Source: Escherichia phage vB_EcoM_G53. From it: a stretch of DNA of 64,000 nt. Positions within the stretch are counted from its first letter, which is position 1. Each line of letters opens with the position of its first letter. The notes beneath the pieces are model-generated. The model was not told the origin of the DNA. It did not search any database and saw only the letters and a list, made by a program, of their open reading frames with translations. The stretch lies in sequence record MK327943.1; one strand, 5' to 3'. The position numbers and the translations under genes were made by a program. Shown one piece after another: positions 1 through 63,455 of the stretch.

Positions 1-2214
1 TTATTTGGCCGCTTCCACGGCCTTCATGAATTTAACGATTTGAGCGACCTGTTCTTTGGAAAGAGTACCACGTCGTCCCATGTAGTCTGACACAATATGA
101 TAATTGGTTTCGAATTCAATAACCATTTTATCATCATTATCGTAAGCATTATCTTTAAGCTTATCGAAAATTTTAGCACACAATTCTAACTTCTTATTCA
201 GGTCTGTATTAGTAGCACCTGCGAATCGATTCCATCCCCAACGATTATTTACTGTTGAGAGTTTTGCAAAGTCTTTACTGATTTCTTTGTTCTTAGAGCT
301 AAAATACTTACTAAGGAAGTTAAGCTCTTCATTACGAGTAATATGATTCAAATAAGGCTGTGCTCTACGACTTGGTGATACATACTCATCATAATCCACT
401 TTATCGATTAGCGTAATATAGTCATTAATTGATTTTTCGAACAAGCATTCTACTTCACCAAGTTTACGAGCTTTCTTAGCAATCTGTGGACGAACTACAG
501 TGAACTCTTTAATACCTGACAAATCAGCAATACGGGTCAAGAAATTGGAGTCATAGTTCAACCAACCTTTATCTGCGTCAAGACATTCAGCATTAGAACG
601 ATTACGAACTATAGCATAACCTTGGATTTCATCAGCTTCACTCGCTGGAATAAAGAGATCTTCTGATACCCAAACATCGTTTTCATTCTTAAAGAACCGA
701 TGAGCACTCGGGGATTTAGGACGAGGCCCATTAGAACGAGTCTTGACTTCAATCCATGGCTTAACGATTTGTAAAAGCTCTGAAGTCTTGTACATGTTAA
801 TGTTGTCGCCATCAAAGATAACTTTAAGACGTTCCAGAAGTTTCATTGCATCTTCGTCTGTAGGGTCAACGAATAGTACGCTTTTACCAAAACCGCGTGG
901 AACTTTACCGGTTAATTTAACCTCGTCTTTAGACATTTCAATTGAATTAAGAGCTCGCATTAATGGAACGCGTCCCTTAACGTCGTCAATAACAATTTCA
1001 ACGTTTTTAATGTTAATGCCAATCAGACTGTTAATTGAAATAGTTGTCGATGAGCTACCACTTTCACGAATACGACGAAGACGAGGGGATTCAACGATAT
1101 CGTATACGACACCAAGATTACACCACTCAGGCCCCATTTTAAAACGTTTGTACAACTCAGAATAAGTTAGTTGTTCTTTAGAGTATTTCAGTGATTCAAT
1201 ATTAGACCCAGCCTTTTCCATGTATTTACGAGCGGTATAACCAAGAGAATCAATTTCACGGAACACATGACGCGGGTATTTACAATCAATCCATTTCTTA
1301 GAATCTTCAGCGAACAATTTAGCATCGATTTCTGCAACGCGTTTATGGATATTTGCTACTGTACGTTTATCAAATGACAATGCTTCACGAGACGGGGCTA
1401 CATCTAGTTCGCCCATAGGGAATTTAATATAAGCTGTAGTGCATCGCGTCATCATCCATGTTTGTTCTTTAATAACACTTCCGATTGGATATACAATACC
1501 ACCATAAACAGCCATGATATTACCACGTTCACCCCATGGAGCTTCCTTGGCCAAATATACATCGTCAAATTCAGGAAAGTATTTAATATCTTTAACACCA
1601 CGAACTTCTGCAATATCACCTAGAGGACGCATAACATATGCAATTTCAGATGCGAACTTTTCAAAATCTTCTGGGTTAACAGGCACAACTACTTCAACGC
1701 CGGTCCGGTCATCAGGTCCCATCTTATCTACGAAGGTTGGCTTAATCTGTGGACCCGTGTCATCTTGGTAGATTACGTAACCACGAACTTCACCGTTGTG
1801 ATAAGACGTAAGGTTAAACGTATCAGTATATGCTAGTGGAGCTTTAGAGCCGAGTCCGAATCCACCAATGAAATCGTTACTCGATGTTTTAGTTGAAGCA
1901 AAATATGAGTTATAGATTCCTGGCTCTTCGTCATTACCTCGAATGGTGAAATCGCTCATACCAGGACCAAAGTCTCGAACTACAAAACGTGGGTCTAAAC
2001 GACCTGGAGCCTGAACAATAAACTTATCGGTGCAACCATTAAGAATTTGTCCATCGATACAGTTTGTGATTAATTCACGTACACAAGCCAATTCTTTGTT
2101 TGTATAAAGGTCATTAGATAAAATCTTATAAACTTTGCTATTGCCTTGAATAGTGAATGCTGTGCTCTTACCACCTGAACCAATAATCGTTTCTTTAGCC
2201 GTTTCAATAATCAT
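1..2214 (-). CDS. rIIA: rIIA protein (lysis inhibition / membrane integrity protector), GHKL ATPase-like N-terminus
   Basis: 737-aa ORF with stop at 1..3; GHKL-type motifs (ELITNCIDG, DFGPGM, GGFGLGSK); position next to gene 39 as in T4. Confidence 0.8.
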   Translation of the reverse strand: MIIETAKETIIGSGGKSTAFTIQGNSKVYKILSNDLYTNKELACVRELITNCIDGQILNGCTDKFIVQAPGRLDPRFVVRDFGPGMSDFTIRGNDEEPGIYNSYFASTKTSSNDFIGGFGLGSKAPLAYTDTFNLTSYHNGEVRGYVIYQDDTGPQIKPTFVDKMGPDDRTGVEVVVPVNPEDFEKFASEIAYVMRPLGDIAEVRGVKDIKYFPEFDDVYLAKEAPWGERGNIMAVYGGIVYPIGSVIKEQTWMMTRCTTAYIKFPMGELDVAPSREALSFDKRTVANIHKRVAEIDAKLFAEDSKKWIDCKYPRHVFREIDSLGYTARKYMEKAGSNIESLKYSKEQLTYSELYKRFKMGPEWCNLGVVYDIVESPRLRRIRESGSSSTTISINSLIGINIKNVEIVIDDVKGRVPLMRALNSIEMSKDEVKLTGKVPRGFGKSVLFVDPTDEDAMKLLERLKVIFDGDNINMYKTSELLQIVKPWIEVKTRSNGPRPKSPSAHRFFKNENDVWVSEDLFIPASEADEIQGYAIVRNRSNAECLDADKGWLNYDSNFLTRIADLSGIKEFTVVRPQIAKKARKLGEVECLFEKSINDYITLIDKVDYDEYVSPSRRAQPYLNHITRNEELNFLSKYFSSKNKEISKDFAKLSTVNNRWGWNRFAGATNTDLNKKLELCAKIFDKLKDNAYDNDDKMVIEFETNYHIVSDYMGRRGTLSKEQVAQIVKFMKAVEAAK

Positions 2215-2226
2215 ATTTTTCTCTCA

Positions 2227-2427
2227 TCACAAGTTACGTTTAAAAATTTCTGCTACTTCAAGAAGTTCTTCTTTAGTAGCTGTATCGGTTTGTATTTTAT
2301 ATCGAATTTCTTTAAAGCGTTCTTTAAAGGACTCTGCTGATTCGATATCAAAAAATCTTTGGATAAGCCGGAATTCCCGGAGCACTGCTTTATCAAAAAG
2401 TTCCAAGTCCACGTTATATGTTCTCAT
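2227..2427 (-). CDS. small hypothetical protein at the rIIA.1 position
   Basis: 66-aa ORF directly upstream of rIIA on the same strand. Confidence 0.4.
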   Translation of the reverse strand: MRTYNVDLELFDKAVLREFRLIQRFFDIESAESFKERFKEIRYKIQTDTATKEELLEVAEIFKRNL

Positions 2428-2519
2428 AATATTCTCTTCAGTAGATTCCTAGGGCACTATTACTAAAGACCATATAATCTATCATCTTATGTGTAATAGT
2501 GCCTCAGGCTATTCAGGAT

Positions 2520-3620
2520 TTACGCTGTGAAGATTTTATCCCACATCGCAACAACTGCATCTCGATTATACTTCTTCCATACTGCTTCAGCACGTTTAAC
2601 TCGAGCTTCGTATGTGTCAGTGAATTCTAATACAGCTTTTGTGTAAAGCGCAACTACTTCTTTCTTAGGAGTAGAGGAATCAATTTCTACACGCACAGTA
2701 TCCGGGTCGTATTCGAATGTCGCATGAGGATAATCCTTAAAAACTAACTGGATTACAGGGACACCTTTAGAGATGGCTTCAATAGAACTATTCTCTACCG
2801 TACCTGTGTCAGGACACGTATTAATAAGTGCTTTAGCCGTTTTAAGACGTTCCATGATTTCACTGTGTGGAGCATCAATAATAACAGGATATTTAGCTGG
2901 TGGTGCCCATTTGCTTGGACAGTATCCTGCACCATTTTCGCCTAGTGCTTTAATCGCTTCAAGAGCAACATCAGTACGACGCATTTTAGTGTCATAACGT
3001 TGTGCACTAATAATCAAATCCGTCGCCGGAAGAACTTCAGGTTTCTCATTCAAACAAATAACCGGATAATCTTCGGCTTCAAACAACGGATTTGCTCGCC
3101 AATAATCATAATCAATTTTGTCAGTCAGACCTGAAGTCATATAACAATATTTGCGTTCAAATTCACGGAAGGCTTTAGTAGGAGCATAACTCTTACCACC
3201 ATTCTTATGAATTTGAATAGTCTGGTCCCAAATTTGAACAATGCCACGAGATACCGGTTCAAATGGTGTTGCCATAAAATTCTTATGAACTTTAGAGAGA
3301 CCTGCGTCTTTAATTGCCTGAACGGTTAGTTTAGTCGGTTCCATAGTAACAACAAAATCGTATTCATGGATGCCGGCTAGTTCAACAATCTTACGAGCCA
3401 TAGTATAACTCATACCTAGACTGAATTTTGTCAGATGACCAACAGGATGATGATTAACCTTCCAATCACCAAACGTGTCATTGTCAAAACCGATATAATC
3501 AATATCAGCACCGATGGACACAAGATATTTCAACACATTTAAATGTACCGCTTCAAGACCACCTTGTACACGTTCTGGGTTAAATGGGACTGCACGAGAT
3601 GGGATAAACATAACTTTCAT
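2520..3620 (-). CDS. GT-B fold glycosyltransferase, candidate DNA 5-hmC glycosyl(arabinosyl)transferase
   Basis: 366-aa ORF; C-terminal GT4-like E-x7-EA-x3-G-x-PVI signature (TGTVENSSIEAISKGVPVI); sits where T4 carries gene 60/mobA. Confidence 0.55.
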   Translation of the reverse strand: MKVMFIPSRAVPFNPERVQGGLEAVHLNVLKYLVSIGADIDYIGFDNDTFGDWKVNHHPVGHLTKFSLGMSYTMARKIVELAGIHEYDFVVTMEPTKLTVQAIKDAGLSKVHKNFMATPFEPVSRGIVQIWDQTIQIHKNGGKSYAPTKAFREFERKYCYMTSGLTDKIDYDYWRANPLFEAEDYPVICLNEKPEVLPATDLIISAQRYDTKMRRTDVALEAIKALGENGAGYCPSKWAPPAKYPVIIDAPHSEIMERLKTAKALINTCPDTGTVENSSIEAISKGVPVIQLVFKDYPHATFEYDPDTVRVEIDSSTPKKEVVALYTKAVLEFTDTYEARVKRAEAVWKKYNRDAVVAMWDKIFTA

Positions 3621-3625
3621 AATTA

Positions 3626-3665
3626 AGCCTTATTAAAATTAAAATGAAGCTCCCGAAGGAGCTTA
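3626..3665 (-). terminator. intrinsic terminator-like hairpin (UUCG loop) plus U-rich tract after gene 39
   Basis: minus strand aagctcc-ttcg-ggagctt followed by cattttaattttaat; 5' arm overlaps the gene 39 stop. Confidence 0.45.
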
Positions 3666-5480
3666 GGACATCCATTCTTTACGAAGTTCTGAATCATCAC
3701 CCATCAACATTTCAAAGAGTTCTTTCCAATTTTCAGGAAGTTTAACTACGTCGTACACAGGGTTCTGAATCATTTCACGATATTCTGACTTTTCAAGGGA
3801 GCCTAATCCCTTGATGTATCTAATACTATGCTTAGGCAGTGTATCTTTAACTTCTTCATACTCAGCTACAGTATAAAACCATTTTTGAGTTTTGCCAATT
3901 TGTGCAATAATTACAGGCGTTTTAACAAAGCGAATACGTCCTTGTTCAAACAATTCAGGCCAATTACTAAAGAAAGCAAGCAAAGCCGGATAGATACTTC
4001 CAAGACCGTCGTGATCTGCATCGGTCATAATTGCAATATTATGATAGTTCGTATTCTCTGCCTTTTCACCAAGAATAAGACCTGTGATAGCACAGATATC
4101 AAAGAGCTCTTTGTTCTTCATCATATCAGCATATGACATACCCCAGCTATTCATCACCTTACCGCGTAATGGGAATCCACCGTGTAGTTCACGGTCACGA
4201 ACATCAATGAGATAACCAATTGCCGAATCACCTTCTGTTAAAAACAATGTCGTATCTGCATCTTTACCACATTGGTTAGCTTTAATATGCTTATGAACCT
4301 TAGCTTTAGTTGCCTTTTTAGCTGCTTTAGTTTCTGCAGCCTTTTCTGCTGCCAATTTACGAGCTAATGCTGCTTCAACAATAGGCATAATCAAGGCTTC
4401 GTTTTTAAGAAGCGCCTGAGCAATTTTCTTAGCATCTAATTGGATATGATTACGAATATCACCATACGTTGACGTTAAACGTTCTTTAGTCTGAGAATCA
4501 AAACGCATGTTGCTCATGTCTCTAATAAACATCAACATTGTGAGGCATTCTTTAACACGAGCTTTAGTGACTTCAATACCCTTATATTTCTTTTTAATAC
4601 CCGGTAAAAGATGTTCGCAGATATCGTCCATTACACATTCAACATGATGTCCACCATTTTTAGTATGGATGTTATTCACATAAGTTAAATGACGGAAGCC
4701 ATCTGGTGATGTTGTGAATGCTATAGAGACTTTATCATTTTCTTGAATGATGTTATCTTCACCAAATTGTTTAGCAAATCGTTTAAAATTACCATCAACC
4801 TTTTTACCATTAAATGTGAACTTGATATCAGGATAAACGACTGCCAATGTTTGAAGTCGGTCTAAAGTAATATCTAAATAAATTTGAGATAAATTATGCT
4901 CTTCAAATGAAGAGAAATCAGGAGTGAAGATTACTTTAGTGCCTTTACCTTTAGATTTCTTAGAAGACCATGATTTGTTTTCCATTCCGTTTGAACAGTT
5001 AACAGTGATTTCATTTTCGCCATCTGACGTGATGCCTGTAAACAACGTAGAGAAGATATTAGTTAAACTACTCCCGACGCCGTTCATACCACCAGTCTTG
5101 CGTTCAGAGTCATCACCAAAGTTACCACCGGCCTTTGGAATAGTCCAGGCTGCTACAGGCCCAGGAATTTGTTCACCCGTTTGGTCAGTAACTAAACCTT
5201 GAGGAATACCACGTCCGTTATCTTCCACCAAAACTTGATTATTTTTAATTTGCACATCAATTTTATTTGCAAACTTAAATGATGTACGAATAGCTTCATC
5301 AACCGAGTTGTCAATAATCTCATCGATTAATTTAACCAGACCAGGAACATATTCAACTTGTTGATATTTACCAAACAAAAAACGCTCATGTGCTTCTTTA
5401 GCAGAAGAACCAATATACATACCACTACGTTTCTTAATATGTTCTACATCTGACAATACCTTAATTTCATTTTTAATCAT
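3663..5480 (-). CDS. 39: DNA topoisomerase II large (ATPase, GyrB-like) subunit, unsplit gp39
   Basis: 605-aa ORF; GHKL ATPase and TOPRIM-like motifs (VEDNGRGIP, GGNFGDD); T4 synteny. Confidence 0.85.
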   Translation of the reverse strand: MIKNEIKVLSDVEHIKKRSGMYIGSSAKEAHERFLFGKYQQVEYVPGLVKLIDEIIDNSVDEAIRTSFKFANKIDVQIKNNQVLVEDNGRGIPQGLVTDQTGEQIPGPVAAWTIPKAGGNFGDDSERKTGGMNGVGSSLTNIFSTLFTGITSDGENEITVNCSNGMENKSWSSKKSKGKGTKVIFTPDFSSFEEHNLSQIYLDITLDRLQTLAVVYPDIKFTFNGKKVDGNFKRFAKQFGEDNIIQENDKVSIAFTTSPDGFRHLTYVNNIHTKNGGHHVECVMDDICEHLLPGIKKKYKGIEVTKARVKECLTMLMFIRDMSNMRFDSQTKERLTSTYGDIRNHIQLDAKKIAQALLKNEALIMPIVEAALARKLAAEKAAETKAAKKATKAKVHKHIKANQCGKDADTTLFLTEGDSAIGYLIDVRDRELHGGFPLRGKVMNSWGMSYADMMKNKELFDICAITGLILGEKAENTNYHNIAIMTDADHDGLGSIYPALLAFFSNWPELFEQGRIRFVKTPVIIAQIGKTQKWFYTVAEYEEVKDTLPKHSIRYIKGLGSLEKSEYREMIQNPVYDVVKLPENWKELFEMLMGDDSELRKEWMS

Positions 5481-40649: not shown

Positions 40650-40865
40650 TTATCTCATTAAATTAAAATAAAAACGTCCATCCTCTTCAATACAGAACTC
40701 ATATTCAACTGGAGTCCCGTTTATCGAAAATGACACGTCATGTGGGTTCAAAGGGTCGATGTCAAAATTAATTTTAAATTCACGACCCAACAGTTTTACC
40801 AAATAAGGGATTGCTTCGTCAAAAGGTTCTTCTAAGTAGTTAGAGATGTCAATTGTCATCCTCAT
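40650..40865 (-). CDS. small hypothetical protein (start placed at MRMTID)
   Basis: ORF 40650..40943 trimmed to the ATG near the gene 55 stop. Confidence 0.35.
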
Positions 40866-41406
40866 ATAAAAAATCCAAACTAGGCGAATCGCTAACAACT
40901 TCCTTCTTTTCAGCCCCAGGAGCTTTATAAGCGGATTCTTCATAATGCGTCATTTTATCGTAGATGTCTTGAATAAATGTTTCATCTACCAACGCTACCA
41001 TATCATCGTCATGACTGTCGTAGACATTATGAACGAAGTAACTATATTTCTTTGCAACTTCCTTACGTTCTTTTTTGATACGTTGGACAAAAGCATTAAA
41101 ACAAGCTCGAGTTATGTATGCATGTGGGTTATTGTACTTAGTTTCGTCGAAATTATGAAGTCCCTTAATAGAGGCTTCAATCCCATCTGCAATCATCTCC
41201 TGCTTCCAAGACTGGGTATATCCTGAAAAGTTGAAACGTTTGGACAGGCCTTCGGCGATAAGCATAATTGCTAAACCGATGGTATCATTCTGACGAATAA
41301 TTTTGTTTGGGTCTTTATTATTTAAGAGCTCCTTTTTCCACTCGATTATAGCGGCGAGAAGCTCTTTATTATTCACATAGTTATTTTTAGGTTTTTGTTC
41401 AGTCAT
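40849..41406 (-). CDS. 55: late transcription sigma factor gp55
   Basis: 185 aa from the ATG at 41406 (MTEQKPK...); near-identical to T4 gp55 as I recall it over [39 protein letters not shown]. Confidence 0.9.
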
Positions 41407-41478
41407 AAGTACCTCTTGGCTCAATTCATAGGTCTATTATATCATAATATTTAGAGACCTATCTTAAAGCACGAGATA

Positions 41479-43871: not shown

Positions 43872-43906
43872 GAAATGAGATAAAGAAGACCAGGCGGCAC
43901 CTGGTC
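43872..43906 (-). terminator. intrinsic terminator after the thioredoxin-fold gene
   Basis: minus strand gaccagg-tgccg-cctggtc followed by a U-rich tract; overlaps the upstream stop. Confidence 0.45.
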
Positions 43907-44228
43907 AATCTTCTATGATATCAGAGTCATATCCTAATGAAATCAAGGACTTTTTAAACTCTGCAATATTCTTTTGTTTCTTATCATTTAAAAATATGAC
44001 AGGATAACGAATATTAAGTGAAGTGAATCCTGCACGTTTAGCAAGAGATATGATTAAAGGACGGTCATATTCAATCTTACCATTATTAGTGAGGACTTTA
44101 TAAAATGTATAAGGAGCATTGAGATCCTTTAAAAGTTTTGTAACAGCATAACATCCTGGACAACGTCCTACTTCTTCAGGGATGCCATAAACTTCAATTT
44201 TATTCTTTGGGTTCGAGTTTTGTTCCAC
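43905..44228 (-). CDS. thioredoxin-fold protein with CPGC motif (glutaredoxin/NrdH-like); start uncertain
   Basis: KIEVYGIPEEVGRCPGCYAVTKLL; GTG at 44228 with AAGGAA SD proposed because the upstream in-frame extension overlaps ORF 44200..44511. Confidence 0.45.
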   Translation of the reverse strand: MEQNSNPKNKIEVYGIPEEVGRCPGCYAVTKLLKDLNAPYTFYKVLTNNGKIEYDRPLIISLAKRAGFTSLNIRYPVIFLNDKKQKNIAEFKKSLISLGYDSDIIED

Positions 44229-44511
44229 GAGAAATAATTCCTTGATAAGCCCAGTACGGCGGGTTAACAGAATCATCACCAGAATTTTCTTCAGGGAAAT
44301 AAACCTGAATAACGAATCCGGATTCGTCAAAGGTAAAATACACTGTAGGCAGTTCACCAAGCAATTCGGAACGAGCGTTAATTTCTTCGAGGTCTTGCTC
44401 ACGTCCAGCCCAGAAACTATGGTTCAGTGTACACTCATAGAAATAATAGTCATTGCCAAACATGTCAAAGCCGTTCCAGCTCTCGGCGACATAACGTTCA
44501 AAACTAAGCAT
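44200..44511 (-). CDS. hypothetical protein
   Basis: 103-aa acidic ORF. Confidence 0.45.
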   Translation of the reverse strand: MLSFERYVAESWNGFDMFGNDYYFYECTLNHSFWAGREQDLEEINARSELLGELPTVYFTFDESGFVIQVYFPEENSGDDSVNPPYWAYQGIISRGTKLEPKE

Positions 44512-44513
44512 AA

Positions 44514-44768
44514 TTAGGCCTTTTTATCAAGAATACGTTCGATGCGACGAGTAATTGATTCACAACGTGCTTTAAACTCGGCAGGCGGAAGTCCCTTTTC
44601 AGGAGAAATCGTTCCAATGATGTAGAACATTACTAATGCCGGAATTGTAACCACAGCACCGATGGCCAACAAAATAACCATCACAATAAATCCGAGTGTT
44701 TGTGCTACTGCTAATCGAAATTTATACATTAGAAAAAGTTCCCGTACATTGATGCAACAAAAAGCCAT
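44514..44768 (-). CDS. small membrane protein
   Basis: 84-aa ORF with two hydrophobic segments. Confidence 0.4.
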   Translation of the reverse strand: MAFCCINVRELFLMYKFRLAVAQTLGFIVMVILLAIGAVVTIPALVMFYIIGTISPEKGLPPAEFKARCESITRRIERILDKKA

Positions 44769-44850
44769 TGAGAAGGATACTCAAGGCCCATTAGACGAAC
44801 CGCATCGTTTACTGCTTCTTGTAATGCGTAGAACACATATCCGTAAAAAT

Positions 44851-45324
44851 TCATTTAAGCGATTTCCTCAGTTGTTTTTTAAATGACGTTACCATTTTAG
44901 CTTTGGTATCGTCTTCATTATAACTAAAACCGTTTGAAAGCATTTCTGCAATCATTTCTTCTTTAGCTAATCTTGAGAACTCTTTAGTTTTGTCCGGAAC
45001 AAAATTAGGATGGATGTTATTAGCAGAATAATCTTGTTTCAAATAAGCAAGAAGAGCTTCAAGCCATTCGAGGTAGTCGACATCACGACCTTTAAGACCA
45101 GAACGGTTGAACTTATGCTTCATTTGACCTTCTGCTGCGTTGCACAGATTACAGAGTAACCCACGAACTCTACCTGCTTTTGGCCCGTTTAATTCGTGGT
45201 CGTGGTCAAGATGGTTACCTTGAACATCAGGGTCTAATTCACGGTGGCAAATAGGACACTTACCGTTCTGTGCATCATAAAATTTTTGTTTTTCTTCTTT
45301 GTATAATTTGCCAGATAATAACAT
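44851..45324 (-). CDS. 49: endonuclease VII (Holliday junction resolvase) gp49
   Basis: 157-aa ORF; zinc/HNH-like motifs CPICHRELD...NHLDHDHELNG...CNLCN; same length as T4 EndoVII. Confidence 0.85.
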   Translation of the reverse strand: MLLSGKLYKEEKQKFYDAQNGKCPICHRELDPDVQGNHLDHDHELNGPKAGRVRGLLCNLCNAAEGQMKHKFNRSGLKGRDVDYLEWLEALLAYLKQDYSANNIHPNFVPDKTKEFSRLAKEEMIAEMLSNGFSYNEDDTKAKMVTSFKKQLRKSLK

Positions 45325-59849: not shown

Positions 59850-60147
59850 ACTCTTTGAAAGGAATTAACTTTTTAACTGCTTTAGATACTTCGTCACGAA
59901 CCTGATGGAAGTTCTTGAGCTGTTCAAGGCGTTGTTCGTAATACGCAATCTCATCTTCTTCAAGACAATCGTCAGCGTCTTCTTTCAGATATGCCTTGTA
60001 CTCATTAAAGAGGGCCCATAGGCGGTTCTCAAAGTCATCAAGGCTTTGAATTTTCTTGTGCTTCGGAACAAGGCCAAAAGGATTGCTTTCAGTTATGCGT
60101 CTAGATGCTTCATAATGAGTTCCAAAGCCTGATAGGATTTGAGCCAT
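59848..60147 (-). CDS. hypothetical protein
   Basis: 99-aa ORF. Confidence 0.45.
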
Positions 60148-60413
60148 TAGTATTTTTCCTCAGGTCGAAATACCGCACGACATGCCCACATGCTGGCTTC
60201 TTTTAGATGTTGCTTAGCATACTTAAGAGCCTGCACTGCATCCATATCTTCTTTGGTTTGTTGCTCTGTTTCATTTTCTTTCAAGATATATGCTTCTTCA
60301 ATCAGAGCATCAAACAACAATCCAAGACGGACTTCTGCATCTTTAATAGCGTTCACTTTACCGATTTTATCATCGGTATGCGGCTTGTAGCCTTTGATGT
60401 CTTCAATCGACAT
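60147..60413 (-). CDS. hypothetical protein (start placed at MSIEDIKG)
   Basis: ORF 60147..60581 trimmed to the ATG near the upstream stop. Confidence 0.4.
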
Positions 60414-60627
60414 AAGGAATTTCCTCATCTGTGGCAAGGTCATATTCGACCAATTGGATAGGCTCATTAATACCATATCCACGTACAGTGATATCAGTTG
60501 TCGGATAGTTTCCAGTAATATCACCCATTCTAAATGATTCAGTGAATGATTGCTCGCCTGAGCAACTAAACCAGGCGGCAAAACATTTTAAAACATCTTC
60601 AGACCCTTCTATAATCAATTTAGCCAT
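60403..60627 (-). CDS. small hypothetical protein
   Basis: 74-aa ORF. Confidence 0.4.
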   Translation of the reverse strand: MAKLIIEGSEDVLKCFAAWFSCSGEQSFTESFRMGDITGNYPTTDITVRGYGINEPIQLVEYDLATDEEIPYVD

Positions 60628-60989
60628 TATAGACTCTCAGTAAAGGTGCGAGCGATAACGTCACGCTGCTGTTCCGGAGTCAGAGAGTTAAAGCGAACTG
60701 CATAACCGGATACACGGATGGTCAGCTGCGGATATTTTTCCGGATGCTTAACTGCATCTTCCAGAGTTTCACGACGCAGAACGTTAACGTTCAGGTGTTG
60801 ACCACCTTCAATTTTAACTTTAGGTTGATGTTCAATTTCAATTTCACGGGCATTCAAACCGTAGAAAATTTCCGGGTCTACAATAGCGTCTTCTTTAAAA
60901 GTCTTAGAGACAATAATCCGGGCTTGAGTACCGTCTTCAAAATAAATAGTGCCTTTATGTGCACCTTCAAGAATTTGATATGCTTTCAT
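60627..60989 (-). CDS. autonomous glycyl-radical cofactor protein (GrcA/YfiD-like)
   Basis: 120-aa ORF; C-terminal [27 protein letters not shown] glycyl-radical (PFL-type RVSGY) motif. Confidence 0.65.
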
Positions 60990-60995
60990 ATAACC

Positions 60996-61304
60996 TCAAT
61001 TAGAAAATAAATTTATCCAAGTTTTTTCTTTAATCAAAAATGGGTCGGAATTAAACGCCATTAAACTTTGAGTGATTAATCCCTTAAATGGCCCATCAAT
61101 AAATTCCATTTTGAAATGTGGAATACTAGTCATCAACCGTGCATTAGGAGCAGTACAAAGAACCTGCTGCCCTGCGAACGGACCTTTAGTCAAACGATAT
61201 CGTTTAGGTTTAAAATGGTAAATCTCGTAATTTTCTACAAGGGCCCTTTTATTGCATACTGGGCTGTTATAACAATATTCAAAAACTTCAATAGTGGTCA
61301 TCAT
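60996..61304 (-). CDS. hypothetical protein
   Basis: 102-aa ORF. Confidence 0.45.
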   Translation of the reverse strand: MMTTIEVFEYCYNSPVCNKRALVENYEIYHFKPKRYRLTKGPFAGQQVLCTAPNARLMTSIPHFKMEFIDGPFKGLITQSLMAFNSDPFLIKEKTWINLFSN

Positions 61305-62746: not shown

Positions 62747-63007
62747 TTAAGCTTTACCGCCAGAAATAATTCCGAAGTTGTTAAAATCGTATCCAATATC
62801 GTCAACATCTACTTTAGGGCTTGCTACAACATAAGCAATTTCACTACGTTTTGCATAGGTGTTGATTTCTTTACCATCGCCACCTAAGAAAGAATACCCA
62901 TTACGTTTTAATGAGCCAAAGTCTTCCGCATCACCAATGAAAGCTTTAACTTTAAATTTGGGGTCTTTGGCATCTGCTTCAATGATAAATTCTTGATACA
63001 TTTTCAT
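62747..63007 (-). CDS. internal protein-like product from the internal start inside the denV frame
   Basis: ATG at 63007 preceded by TAAGGAAAAA; [14 protein letters not shown] leader. Confidence 0.45.
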
Positions 63008-63427
63008 TTTTTCCTTAGTAAATTGATTACCATAGTATTTGTACCAAGTCGGACGTTGAGCAATTTTTTCATCTAAGCGTGCTTGACTTATCGCAATGGA
63101 CGCTTCGGACGGGACGTAATTATTACGAAATTCGGCAGGAATGTCGGAAATATCCTGGACAGTCGTGTCCTTGATTTTGAAACCGCGTTTCAAGCATTCA
63201 GCGATTAGCTCGATTTGTCGTAAACGTAAAAATTCGAGTTTGTCGTAAAAGAATGTTACGTGACCTGTGCCTAAGATAAATGTTGGAGAGATTTTAAAAT
63301 CCTTTACACGTTTACCGTTTTGAACATGTTTACGGACTGCACCAAATACGCGTGGTAATTCACGATACTCAGCCATAAGATGTTGGTCGGACAGTTCAGA
63401 AACAAGTGTTAAATTGATACGAGTCAT
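62747..63427 (-). CDS. denV: DenV endonuclease V (pyrimidine-dimer glycosylase) reading in-frame into an IP-like C-terminal module
   Basis: from the ATG at 63427: [34 protein letters not shown] matches T4 DenV as I recall it; no stop before [10 protein letters not shown] at 63007. Confidence 0.75.
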
Positions 63428-63455
63428 AATTTCCTCCAAGTAGTTGATGAATGTA

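Follow-up and report, generated by a model that had tools for sequence, protein, structure and literature searches.

A chimeric vs.6 gene and a gene 49 region without nrdD and nrdG in Escherichia phage vB_EcoM_G53

We analysed a stretch of 64,000 nucleotides (nt) from Escherichia phage vB_EcoM_G53 (record MK327943.1), called the window below, and in it an open reading frame (ORF) at positions 60627-60989 on the minus strand that encodes a GrcA-like autonomous glycyl-radical cofactor of 120 residues, the Vs.6 or Y06I protein of phage T4. A sequence-only reading of the window had placed this ORF in the GrcA/YfiD type on account of an RVSGY motif, and profile and structure comparisons agree with that placement. 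The ORF matches the Pfam family PF01228 (Gly_radical) with E = 2e-18 and 67.3 bits, the cut-off being 22.2. Its top match among solved structures is Escherichia coli GrcA/YfiD (6owr, E = 2e-42), followed by the C-terminus (residues 696-759) of the pyruvate formate-lyase (PFL) PflB, which aligns with Vs.6 residues 57-120 at E = 3e-26 and is approximately 84% identical over the 64 aligned residues. Residues 60-120 of the window protein are the same as GrcA residues 67-127 at 61 of 61 positions. The radical-bearing glycine of RVSGY is Gly95 (codon at 60705-60707, minus strand), which the translation and the alignment with 6owr and PflB equate with GrcA G102 and PflB G734. The glycyl-radical motif and the gene are far beyond chance, and the ORF is real.

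Over all 120 residues the window protein is 93.3% identical to T4 Vs.6 in tblastn, and the T4 RefSeq entry (NP_049730) is itself labelled "autonomous glycyl radical cofactor GrcA" with a length of 120 residues. The two proteins share length, gene position, neighbours, N-terminus, an E. coli-identical C-terminal half and a junction at codon 60/61. They differ at eight residues, among them R73 in the window, as in E. coli, against H73 in T4. Judged by this identity and by its position, the window ORF is the ortholog of T4 vs.6, a gene already known and already characterised. The earlier assignment of the gene therefore holds, with the amendment that it is vs.6 itself in its normal place between regB and denV. 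In T4, vs.6 coexists with nrdD and nrdG, which removes most of the surprise from its occurrence here. E. coli GrcA/YfiD is likewise a stand-alone protein of approximately 14 kDa with the same radical motif and C-terminal residues. The N-terminal half of the window protein is, however, seven residues shorter and only weakly similar to that of GrcA, and its gene lies in an AT-rich early-gene cluster of a lytic phage.

The synteny of the gene can be read directly from the window, as can its identity. The order regB-vs.3-vs.4-vs.5-vs.6-vs.7-vs.8-denV is common to the window and T4. RegB was found by Pfam (E = 8e-69), window ORFs match T4 vs.4, vs.5 and vs.7 in tblastn, and the position of vs.6 between vs.5 and vs.7 is conserved. 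Farther out, the cluster is flanked by denV, several internal-protein genes and the lysozyme gene e. The vs.6 gene has its own stop codon and its own Shine-Dalgarno sequence, GAGG (60994-60997, minus strand), which was read from the sequence 4 nt before the ATG and overlaps the vs.7 stop, while the TAA stop of vs.6 overlaps the vs.5 ATG as TAATG. These overlaps set vs.6 within a tightly packed polycistronic row that runs vs.8-vs.7-vs.6-vs.5-vs.4-vs.3. Promoter and terminator scans around vs.6 and around gene 49 returned no more sites than shuffled controls.

The sequence-only reading had also stated that nrdD and nrdG are missing between genes 55 and 49 and that a thioredoxin-fold gene lies in this interval; both statements were borne out. 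With NrdD (605 residues) and NrdG (156 residues) of the closest relative as queries, no tblastn match was found in the 64-kb window at E <= 1, and the NrdD and NrdG of Aeromonas phage phiAS5 gave nothing meaningful there, the single hit being a chance-level NrdD match of 46 residues (E = 0.055). From gene 55 (40849-41424) to gene 49 (44851-45324, minus strand) all of the ORFs are of 165 residues or fewer. Gene 49 itself, encoding endonuclease VII, is recognized by the Pfam families Endonuclease_7 and Endonuc-dimeris and is 92% identical to that of NBG1 at the nucleotide level. The thioredoxin-fold gene is an nrdH-like glutaredoxin ORF (43905-44402, minus strand), annotated as glutaredoxin in a relative and 78.7% identical in nucleotides to T4 nrdH; its Pfam Glutaredoxin match (E = 7e-4, 20.2 bits) falls below the cut-off of 22.9. 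Its start codon is uncertain, and where T4 nrdH has its start codon the window reads AAT AAA ATT (N-K-I). The ORF is retained though nrdD and nrdG are gone, as in Dhakavirus.

The window belongs to a T4-like phage, and its DNA matches Mosigvirus isolates, among them vB_EcoM_NBG1 and mar005P1, at 97-99% identity. In NBG1, T4 and the 25 best-matching relatives, nrdG and nrdD are situated directly downstream of gene 49, with the nrdD ATG overlapping the gene 49 stop, and in all 25 closest (Mosigvirus) relatives listed the pair lies between 55.8 and gene 49. T4 has nrdD (with an intron and I-TevII), mobC and nrdG adjoining gene 49; the window has none of these. Pairwise BLAST to NBG1 places the breakpoints directly: the match stops at 44609, within 55.8, and restarts at 44850, exactly at the gene 49 stop. 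Between them, 240 nt of the window (44610-44849, minus strand) replace 2,510 nt of NBG1 that comprise the 5' end of 55.8, an ORF of 38 residues, nrdG and nrdD.

The replacement segment contains recognizable genes. Right after gene 49 lies a small conserved gene, ORF41 (44729-44854, minus strand), whose ATG overlaps the gene 49 TGA as ATGA and whose product is 56% identical to gp074 (42 residues) of Dhakavirus VR5, encoded at the same position. Next to it is a divergent allele of the small membrane protein gene 55.8 (44514-44729, minus strand; 71 residues from MYKF), which is 44% identical to the NBG1 protein, 40% to that of T4 and 34-35% to those of Dhakavirus. From 44716/44748 rightwards, through ORF41 and on into gene 49, the sequence matches the Dhakavirus phages JS98 and VR5 at 78-79%; in these two phages the order is gene 49, a small ORF, 55.8, one more ORF and nrdH, with nrdD and nrdG missing. 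JS98 also has a readable variant of ORF41. Since 240 nt hold both a divergent 55.8 allele and ORF41, the segment is not a deletion scar. The simplest reading of these comparisons is a recombinational swap with an unsampled lineage of cassette-less architecture, and not a recent internal deletion. The absence of nrdD and nrdG from the window, itself a direct observation, thus stands as first described, while their description as an unexplained gap does not, as the genes have been exchanged for a Dhakavirus-like module.

The junction did not reappear in the collections searched. No phage record reaches 80% coverage of 44450-45000, the exact junction strings are absent from IMG/VR viral contigs and from metagenome contigs, exact-protein look-ups recorded neither the 55.8 allele (as 71 or 84 residues) nor gp49, and the 55.8 allele has no relative in IMG/VR. 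We considered ORF41 as a scar of nrdD or nrdG and ruled this out, as it has no similarity to either. Compared with the 38-residue ORF between 55.8 and nrdG of NBG1, ORF41 is 19% identical, and both contain an ND...G.E motif, which is suggestive of a distant relationship between ORF41 and that ORF of the nrdDG-carrying phages.

Dhakavirus JS98 has the same arrangement of gene 49, small ORF and 55.8, and NrdD, NrdG, E. coli GrcA and the Vs.6 of the window served as queries against its whole genome (170.5 kb, seven loci joined). None of them had a match below E = 0.2, in the same search that found gp49 at 85% identity. JS98 keeps the aerobic nrdA and nrdB, and also nrdC and nrdH. In both JS98 and VR5, vs.5 is followed directly by vs.7 with no vs.6 between them, and VR5 has both local gaps as in JS98. 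The genome-wide absence in JS98 and the vs.5-vs.7 adjacency in the two phages indicate that Dhakavirus lacks nrdD, nrdG and vs.6. The window therefore resembles Dhakavirus at the gene 49, small ORF, 55.8 and nrdH locus; it differs in having kept vs.6 and in being of Mosigvirus type elsewhere. The phage is most probably without a class III reductase of its own; we infer this absence for the genome beyond the window, with support from JS98, which has the same architecture and no nrdD or nrdG genome-wide.

The vs.6 gene is a chimera of phage-type and host-type sequence, as is apparent when its codons are aligned with those of T4 vs.6 and E. coli grcA. Codons 1-60 (60810-60989, minus strand), which begin MKAYQILEG..., have a GC content of 36%, a third-position GC fraction (GC3) of approximately 0.23 and a nucleotide identity to E. 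coli grcA of 30-60%. Codons 61-120 (60630-60809, minus strand), which encode the structured radical domain EGGQH...TESL, have a GC content of 49% in a window whose mean is 37%, and 175 of their 180 nt are those of E. coli grcA. The identity is 100% over 144 nt (60666-60809) from codon 61 on. All five differences in the last 180 nt are synonymous; T4 has three differences in the same tract, and in coliphages the 3' half is 97-98% identical to E. coli grcA. Constraint on the protein does not account for this near-identity, because other enterobacterial species are at most 90% identical to E. coli in the 3' tract and phage EC-W2 has a tract that is 100% identical to E. coli in amino acids but 83% in nucleotides.

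A Klebsiella phage shows the same construction with a different host. In the Jiaodavirus pKp20, the 3' half of vs.6 (GC3 0.60) is 96% identical to Klebsiella pneumoniae grcA over 173 nt from nt 181 (codon 61), with complete identity over the first 99 nt. Within the last 180 nt of grcA, E. coli and K. pneumoniae can be told apart at 21 sites, 17 of them synonymous. All 21 are in the E. coli state in the window, T4 and mobillu, pKp20 agrees with K. pneumoniae at the first 18 of the 21, and homologs from Slopekvirus, Pseudotevenvirus, Krischvirus and T5-like phages have mixed states. The 5' half of the window gene differs from that of T4 at 19 and from that of pKp20 at 47 of 180 nt; in the window and in pKp20 this half is clearly phage sequence of common origin and resembles neither host. 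The junction falls at codon 60/61 in the coliphages and in pKp20 alike, which is also where the disordered half of YfiD meets the structured half, and at this upstream junction there is almost no homology between phage and host. The grcA sequence of K. aerogenes (LR134122) was dropped from the comparison for a frameshift. The PLSDB entries CP125156.1 (5.37 Mb), NZ_OL790696.1 and NZ_CP141089.1 are whole chromosomes labelled as plasmids, and entries of this kind supplied the K. pneumoniae grcA.

The host-matched 3' halves of the coliphages and pKp20 imply, on these sequence comparisons, that at least two lineages of Tevenvirinae recently acquired the radical-domain half of vs.6 from their local hosts, in separate replacements. 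A more general interpretation, to which we give even odds, is that vs.6 is a repeatedly updated, host-matched spare part whose phage 5' half is kept and whose 3' half is overwritten by the grcA of the current host species. The process would be ongoing recombination of lytic T-even phages with degraded host DNA at one specific gene. We found no paper on chimerism of vs.6 at the nucleotide level in the part of the literature accessible to us, and it is possibly unreported.

The function of vs.6 can be approached through its two studied relatives. According to PMC8683613, which cites Wagner et al. 2001, both T4 Y06I and YfiD acquire a glycyl radical from the PFL-activating enzyme (PFL-AE) and restore O2-cleaved PFL in vitro. 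YfiD and Y06I are the only two validated PFL spare parts (PMC8683613). The structured C-terminal half of YfiD (residues 61-127) docks into cleaved PFL, where it replaces PflB 693-759 and bears the radical, and the N-terminal half matters for binding to cleaved PFL and for activation (PMC8683613). The radical on GrcA G102 is passed to PflB C419, and the roles of G102 and G734 have been described (PMC12338860). The part of PflB that is lost or displaced after O2 cleavage, residues 693-759, is the part matched by Vs.6. Unlike PflB, Vs.6 has no catalytic barrel and corresponds to the replaceable module alone.

In infections at low or fluctuating oxygen, the vs.6 product probably (about 0.85) serves to rescue host PFL that oxygen has damaged. 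The sequence-only reading had suggested this role, and it is a likely one because the 93%-identical T4 ortholog Y06I does so in vitro; for the window protein, both the activity and the role in vivo are predicted by orthology. During infection at low oxygen, host PflB cleaved by O2 at Gly734 would bind phage Vs.6. Host PflA, the PFL-activating enzyme and a radical S-adenosylmethionine protein, would then put a radical on Gly95 of Vs.6. The C-terminal half of Vs.6 would take the place of the lost radical domain of PflB and hand the radical to Cys419. With host PflA as the activase no phage activase would be needed, so vs.6 could work with or without phage nrdD and nrdG.

Homologs of vs.6 are widespread. 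A tblastn search with the window protein matched 1,588 phage records, 1,534 of them at full length, from T4-like phages of Escherichia, Klebsiella, Enterobacter, Citrobacter, Aeromonas and Vibrio and from T5-like siphoviruses, which makes two phage families. Many of these records carry a GrcA annotation already ("autonomous glycyl radical cofactor"). The gene was listed earlier as one of 11 T4 ORFs of unknown function that were conserved throughout a comparison of T4 with five T4-like phages, six genomes in total (Nolan et al. 2006, PMC1524935).

We compared the distribution of vs.6 with that of nrdD by means of a chimeric vs.6+nrdD query, the counts from which, like those from a 49-nrdD junction query, are approximate. 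In phages close to T4 and Mosigvirus, the chimeric query matched 1,796 places in 1,030 records, 768 of them with full nrdD, and approximately 766 of these 768 have a second matching place, taken as vs.6. The junction query found the junction intact in 832 of 924 records; among the matches listed, the full-genome rows with gene 49 only were all at approximately 81-82% identity and mostly from Dhakavirus. In three genomes of approximately 170 kb, MT533174.1 (CJ20), OL451225.1 (P896) and MW233709.1 (UPEC01), the nrdD part of the chimeric query matched and the vs.6 part did not, and these are candidates for the opposite genotype, nrdD without vs.6. The one genome at the bottom of the ranking that seemed to have vs.6 only, that of Klebsiella phage 15882-3-4, was rejected, its nrdD and nrdG being present but missed by megablast. 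In the Klebsiella Jiaodavirus checked, the nrdDG cassette adjoins gene 49, as in T4. In Aeromonas phage phiAS5 (locus 376-3944) the genes form a row nrdD-nrdG-grcA-like-nrdC-nrdH in which the ATG of the grcA-like gene overlaps the nrdG stop; among the contexts seen, only this one joins the spare part physically to class III reductase genes.

Several observations weigh against PFL rescue in a phage devoid of its own class III reductase. At the level of lineages vs.6 travels with nrdD and nrdG, as seen in Dhakavirus, which is without all three, and in the phiAS5 row, and a connection with the class III reductase is thereby conceivable. It also makes the genotype of the window, vs.6 present and nrdDG absent, a discordant one, which was absent from the close relatives that could be inspected; the false lead from phage 15882-3-4 limits any claim of rarity to the closest relatives. 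The NCBIfam model TIGR04365 (GrcA; IPR011140), whose source is bacterial GrcA, scores the window protein at 159.1 bits over model positions 23-126 only and thus narrowly misses its equivalog cut-off of 170. The cause of the low score is the phage-type stretch of 59 N-terminal residues, strongly unlike bacterial GrcA. These residues lie in the half that is important in YfiD for activation and for the binding of cleaved PFL. This last objection is weakened because T4 Y06I is functional in vitro with this very N-terminus, and the MKAYQILEG... motif of this N-terminus is common to T4-like and even T5-like homologs. Finally, the window is 64 kb of a genome of roughly 168 kb, and some 100 kb lie outside it.

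With so much of the genome out of view, nrdD and nrdG could be present outside the window, and the genotype of a GrcA-like gene without reductase would then be nonexistent. Other contexts for nrdD and nrdG are indeed known from phiAS5 and from T5-like phages. Against this, the cassette adjoins gene 49 in T4, in the Jiaodavirus checked and in the 25 closest Mosigvirus relatives listed, and JS98, which shares the junction of gene 49, ORF and 55.8, has no copy genome-wide; we consider a distant copy improbable. The main rival to PFL rescue makes Vs.6 a part of the class III reductase system; it would be a spare radical domain for O2-cleaved NrdD of phage or host, or a substrate of NrdG, and would be a leftover in this phage. 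A role in nucleotide metabolism has been proposed for the gene (Nolan et al. 2006, PMC1524935), in the nrd row of phiAS5 the homolog and nrdG are coupled in translation, JS98 is without nrdD, nrdG and vs.6 together, and nearly all of the close records with full-length nrdD have the second match taken as vs.6. The radical domain itself, however, is that of GrcA and 84% that of PflB, whereas it resembles the NrdD C-terminus (RRTCGYLG...) in the G-Y pair only, and none of its 33 solved-structure matches is an NrdD chain. As the T4 protein Y06I is a substrate of PFL-AE and able to rescue PFL in vitro (PMC8683613), and as vs.6 is intact in a window without nrdDG, we regard a reductase-linked role as decidedly improbable.

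It might instead be supposed that Vs.6 is a decoy that soaks up PflA or occupies PFL and so redirects or stops the flux of host pyruvate. The phage N-terminal half differs from the host protein in the region implicated in recognizing cleaved PFL, so binding could differ from that of host GrcA. Such a decoy would have no need of the radical glycine and of a whole catalytic half identical to that of the host, and the T4 ortholog restores PFL activity in vitro (PMC8683613); we find a decoy very doubtful. The host-like half could also be a by-product of neutral recombination in a gene without selected function, since 175-177 of 180 nt equal to E. coli grcA, together with the host-like GC content, show a recent import of host DNA. 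Against neutrality, the ORF is intact and at full length throughout the 1,534 records from two phage families, the 5' half is conserved among phage lineages, the five differences in the 3' half are all synonymous, and both the Shine-Dalgarno sequence and the translational coupling are kept. We regard this explanation as scarcely credible. Rescue of oxygen-damaged PFL remains the reading that we prefer.

Two features near vs.6 were observed in passing. The vs.4 gene, two genes downstream of vs.6, has a Pfam Acb2/Tad1 hairpin match (60147-60413, E = 1.4e-17), that is, to a family of cyclic-nucleotide sponges acting against the cyclic-oligonucleotide-based antiphage signaling system (anti-CBASS). 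Its ORF at 60147-60581, with a TTG start, is probably an over-extended version of the 88-residue T4-type gene. In the denV ORF (62747-63439), two changes in homopolymer length relative to NBG1 approximately 20 nt apart (AAA to AA and A5 to A6, at about 63005-63031) remove the denV stop and join denV in frame to the following internal-protein gene, in an ORF of 230 residues. The fusion could be genuine or an artefact of sequencing through A-runs.

The vs.6 gene alone adds nothing new, as its biochemical function is published. What remains is a genotype, possibly rare or unique, produced by the module swap and the host-tracking chimerism of vs.6, the latter of which may be more interesting than the original finding. 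A Mosigvirus-like phage with vs.6 and without nrdD and nrdG is a genetic argument for a spare part independent of the phage's own glycyl-radical system, and such a phage would be a convenient strain for probing the role of vs.6 at low oxygen. The tracking of the host at synonymous sites is direct sequence evidence of recent and repeated host-to-phage transfer into one gene of strictly lytic phages. If the host-tracking interpretation is true, the retention of vs.6 after loss of the reductase would show that it serves host PFL and not a phage reductase. If the pattern is general, the 3' half of vs.6 could be used as a marker of host species in T-even genomes, and would be a tractable system in which to measure recombination between phage and host.

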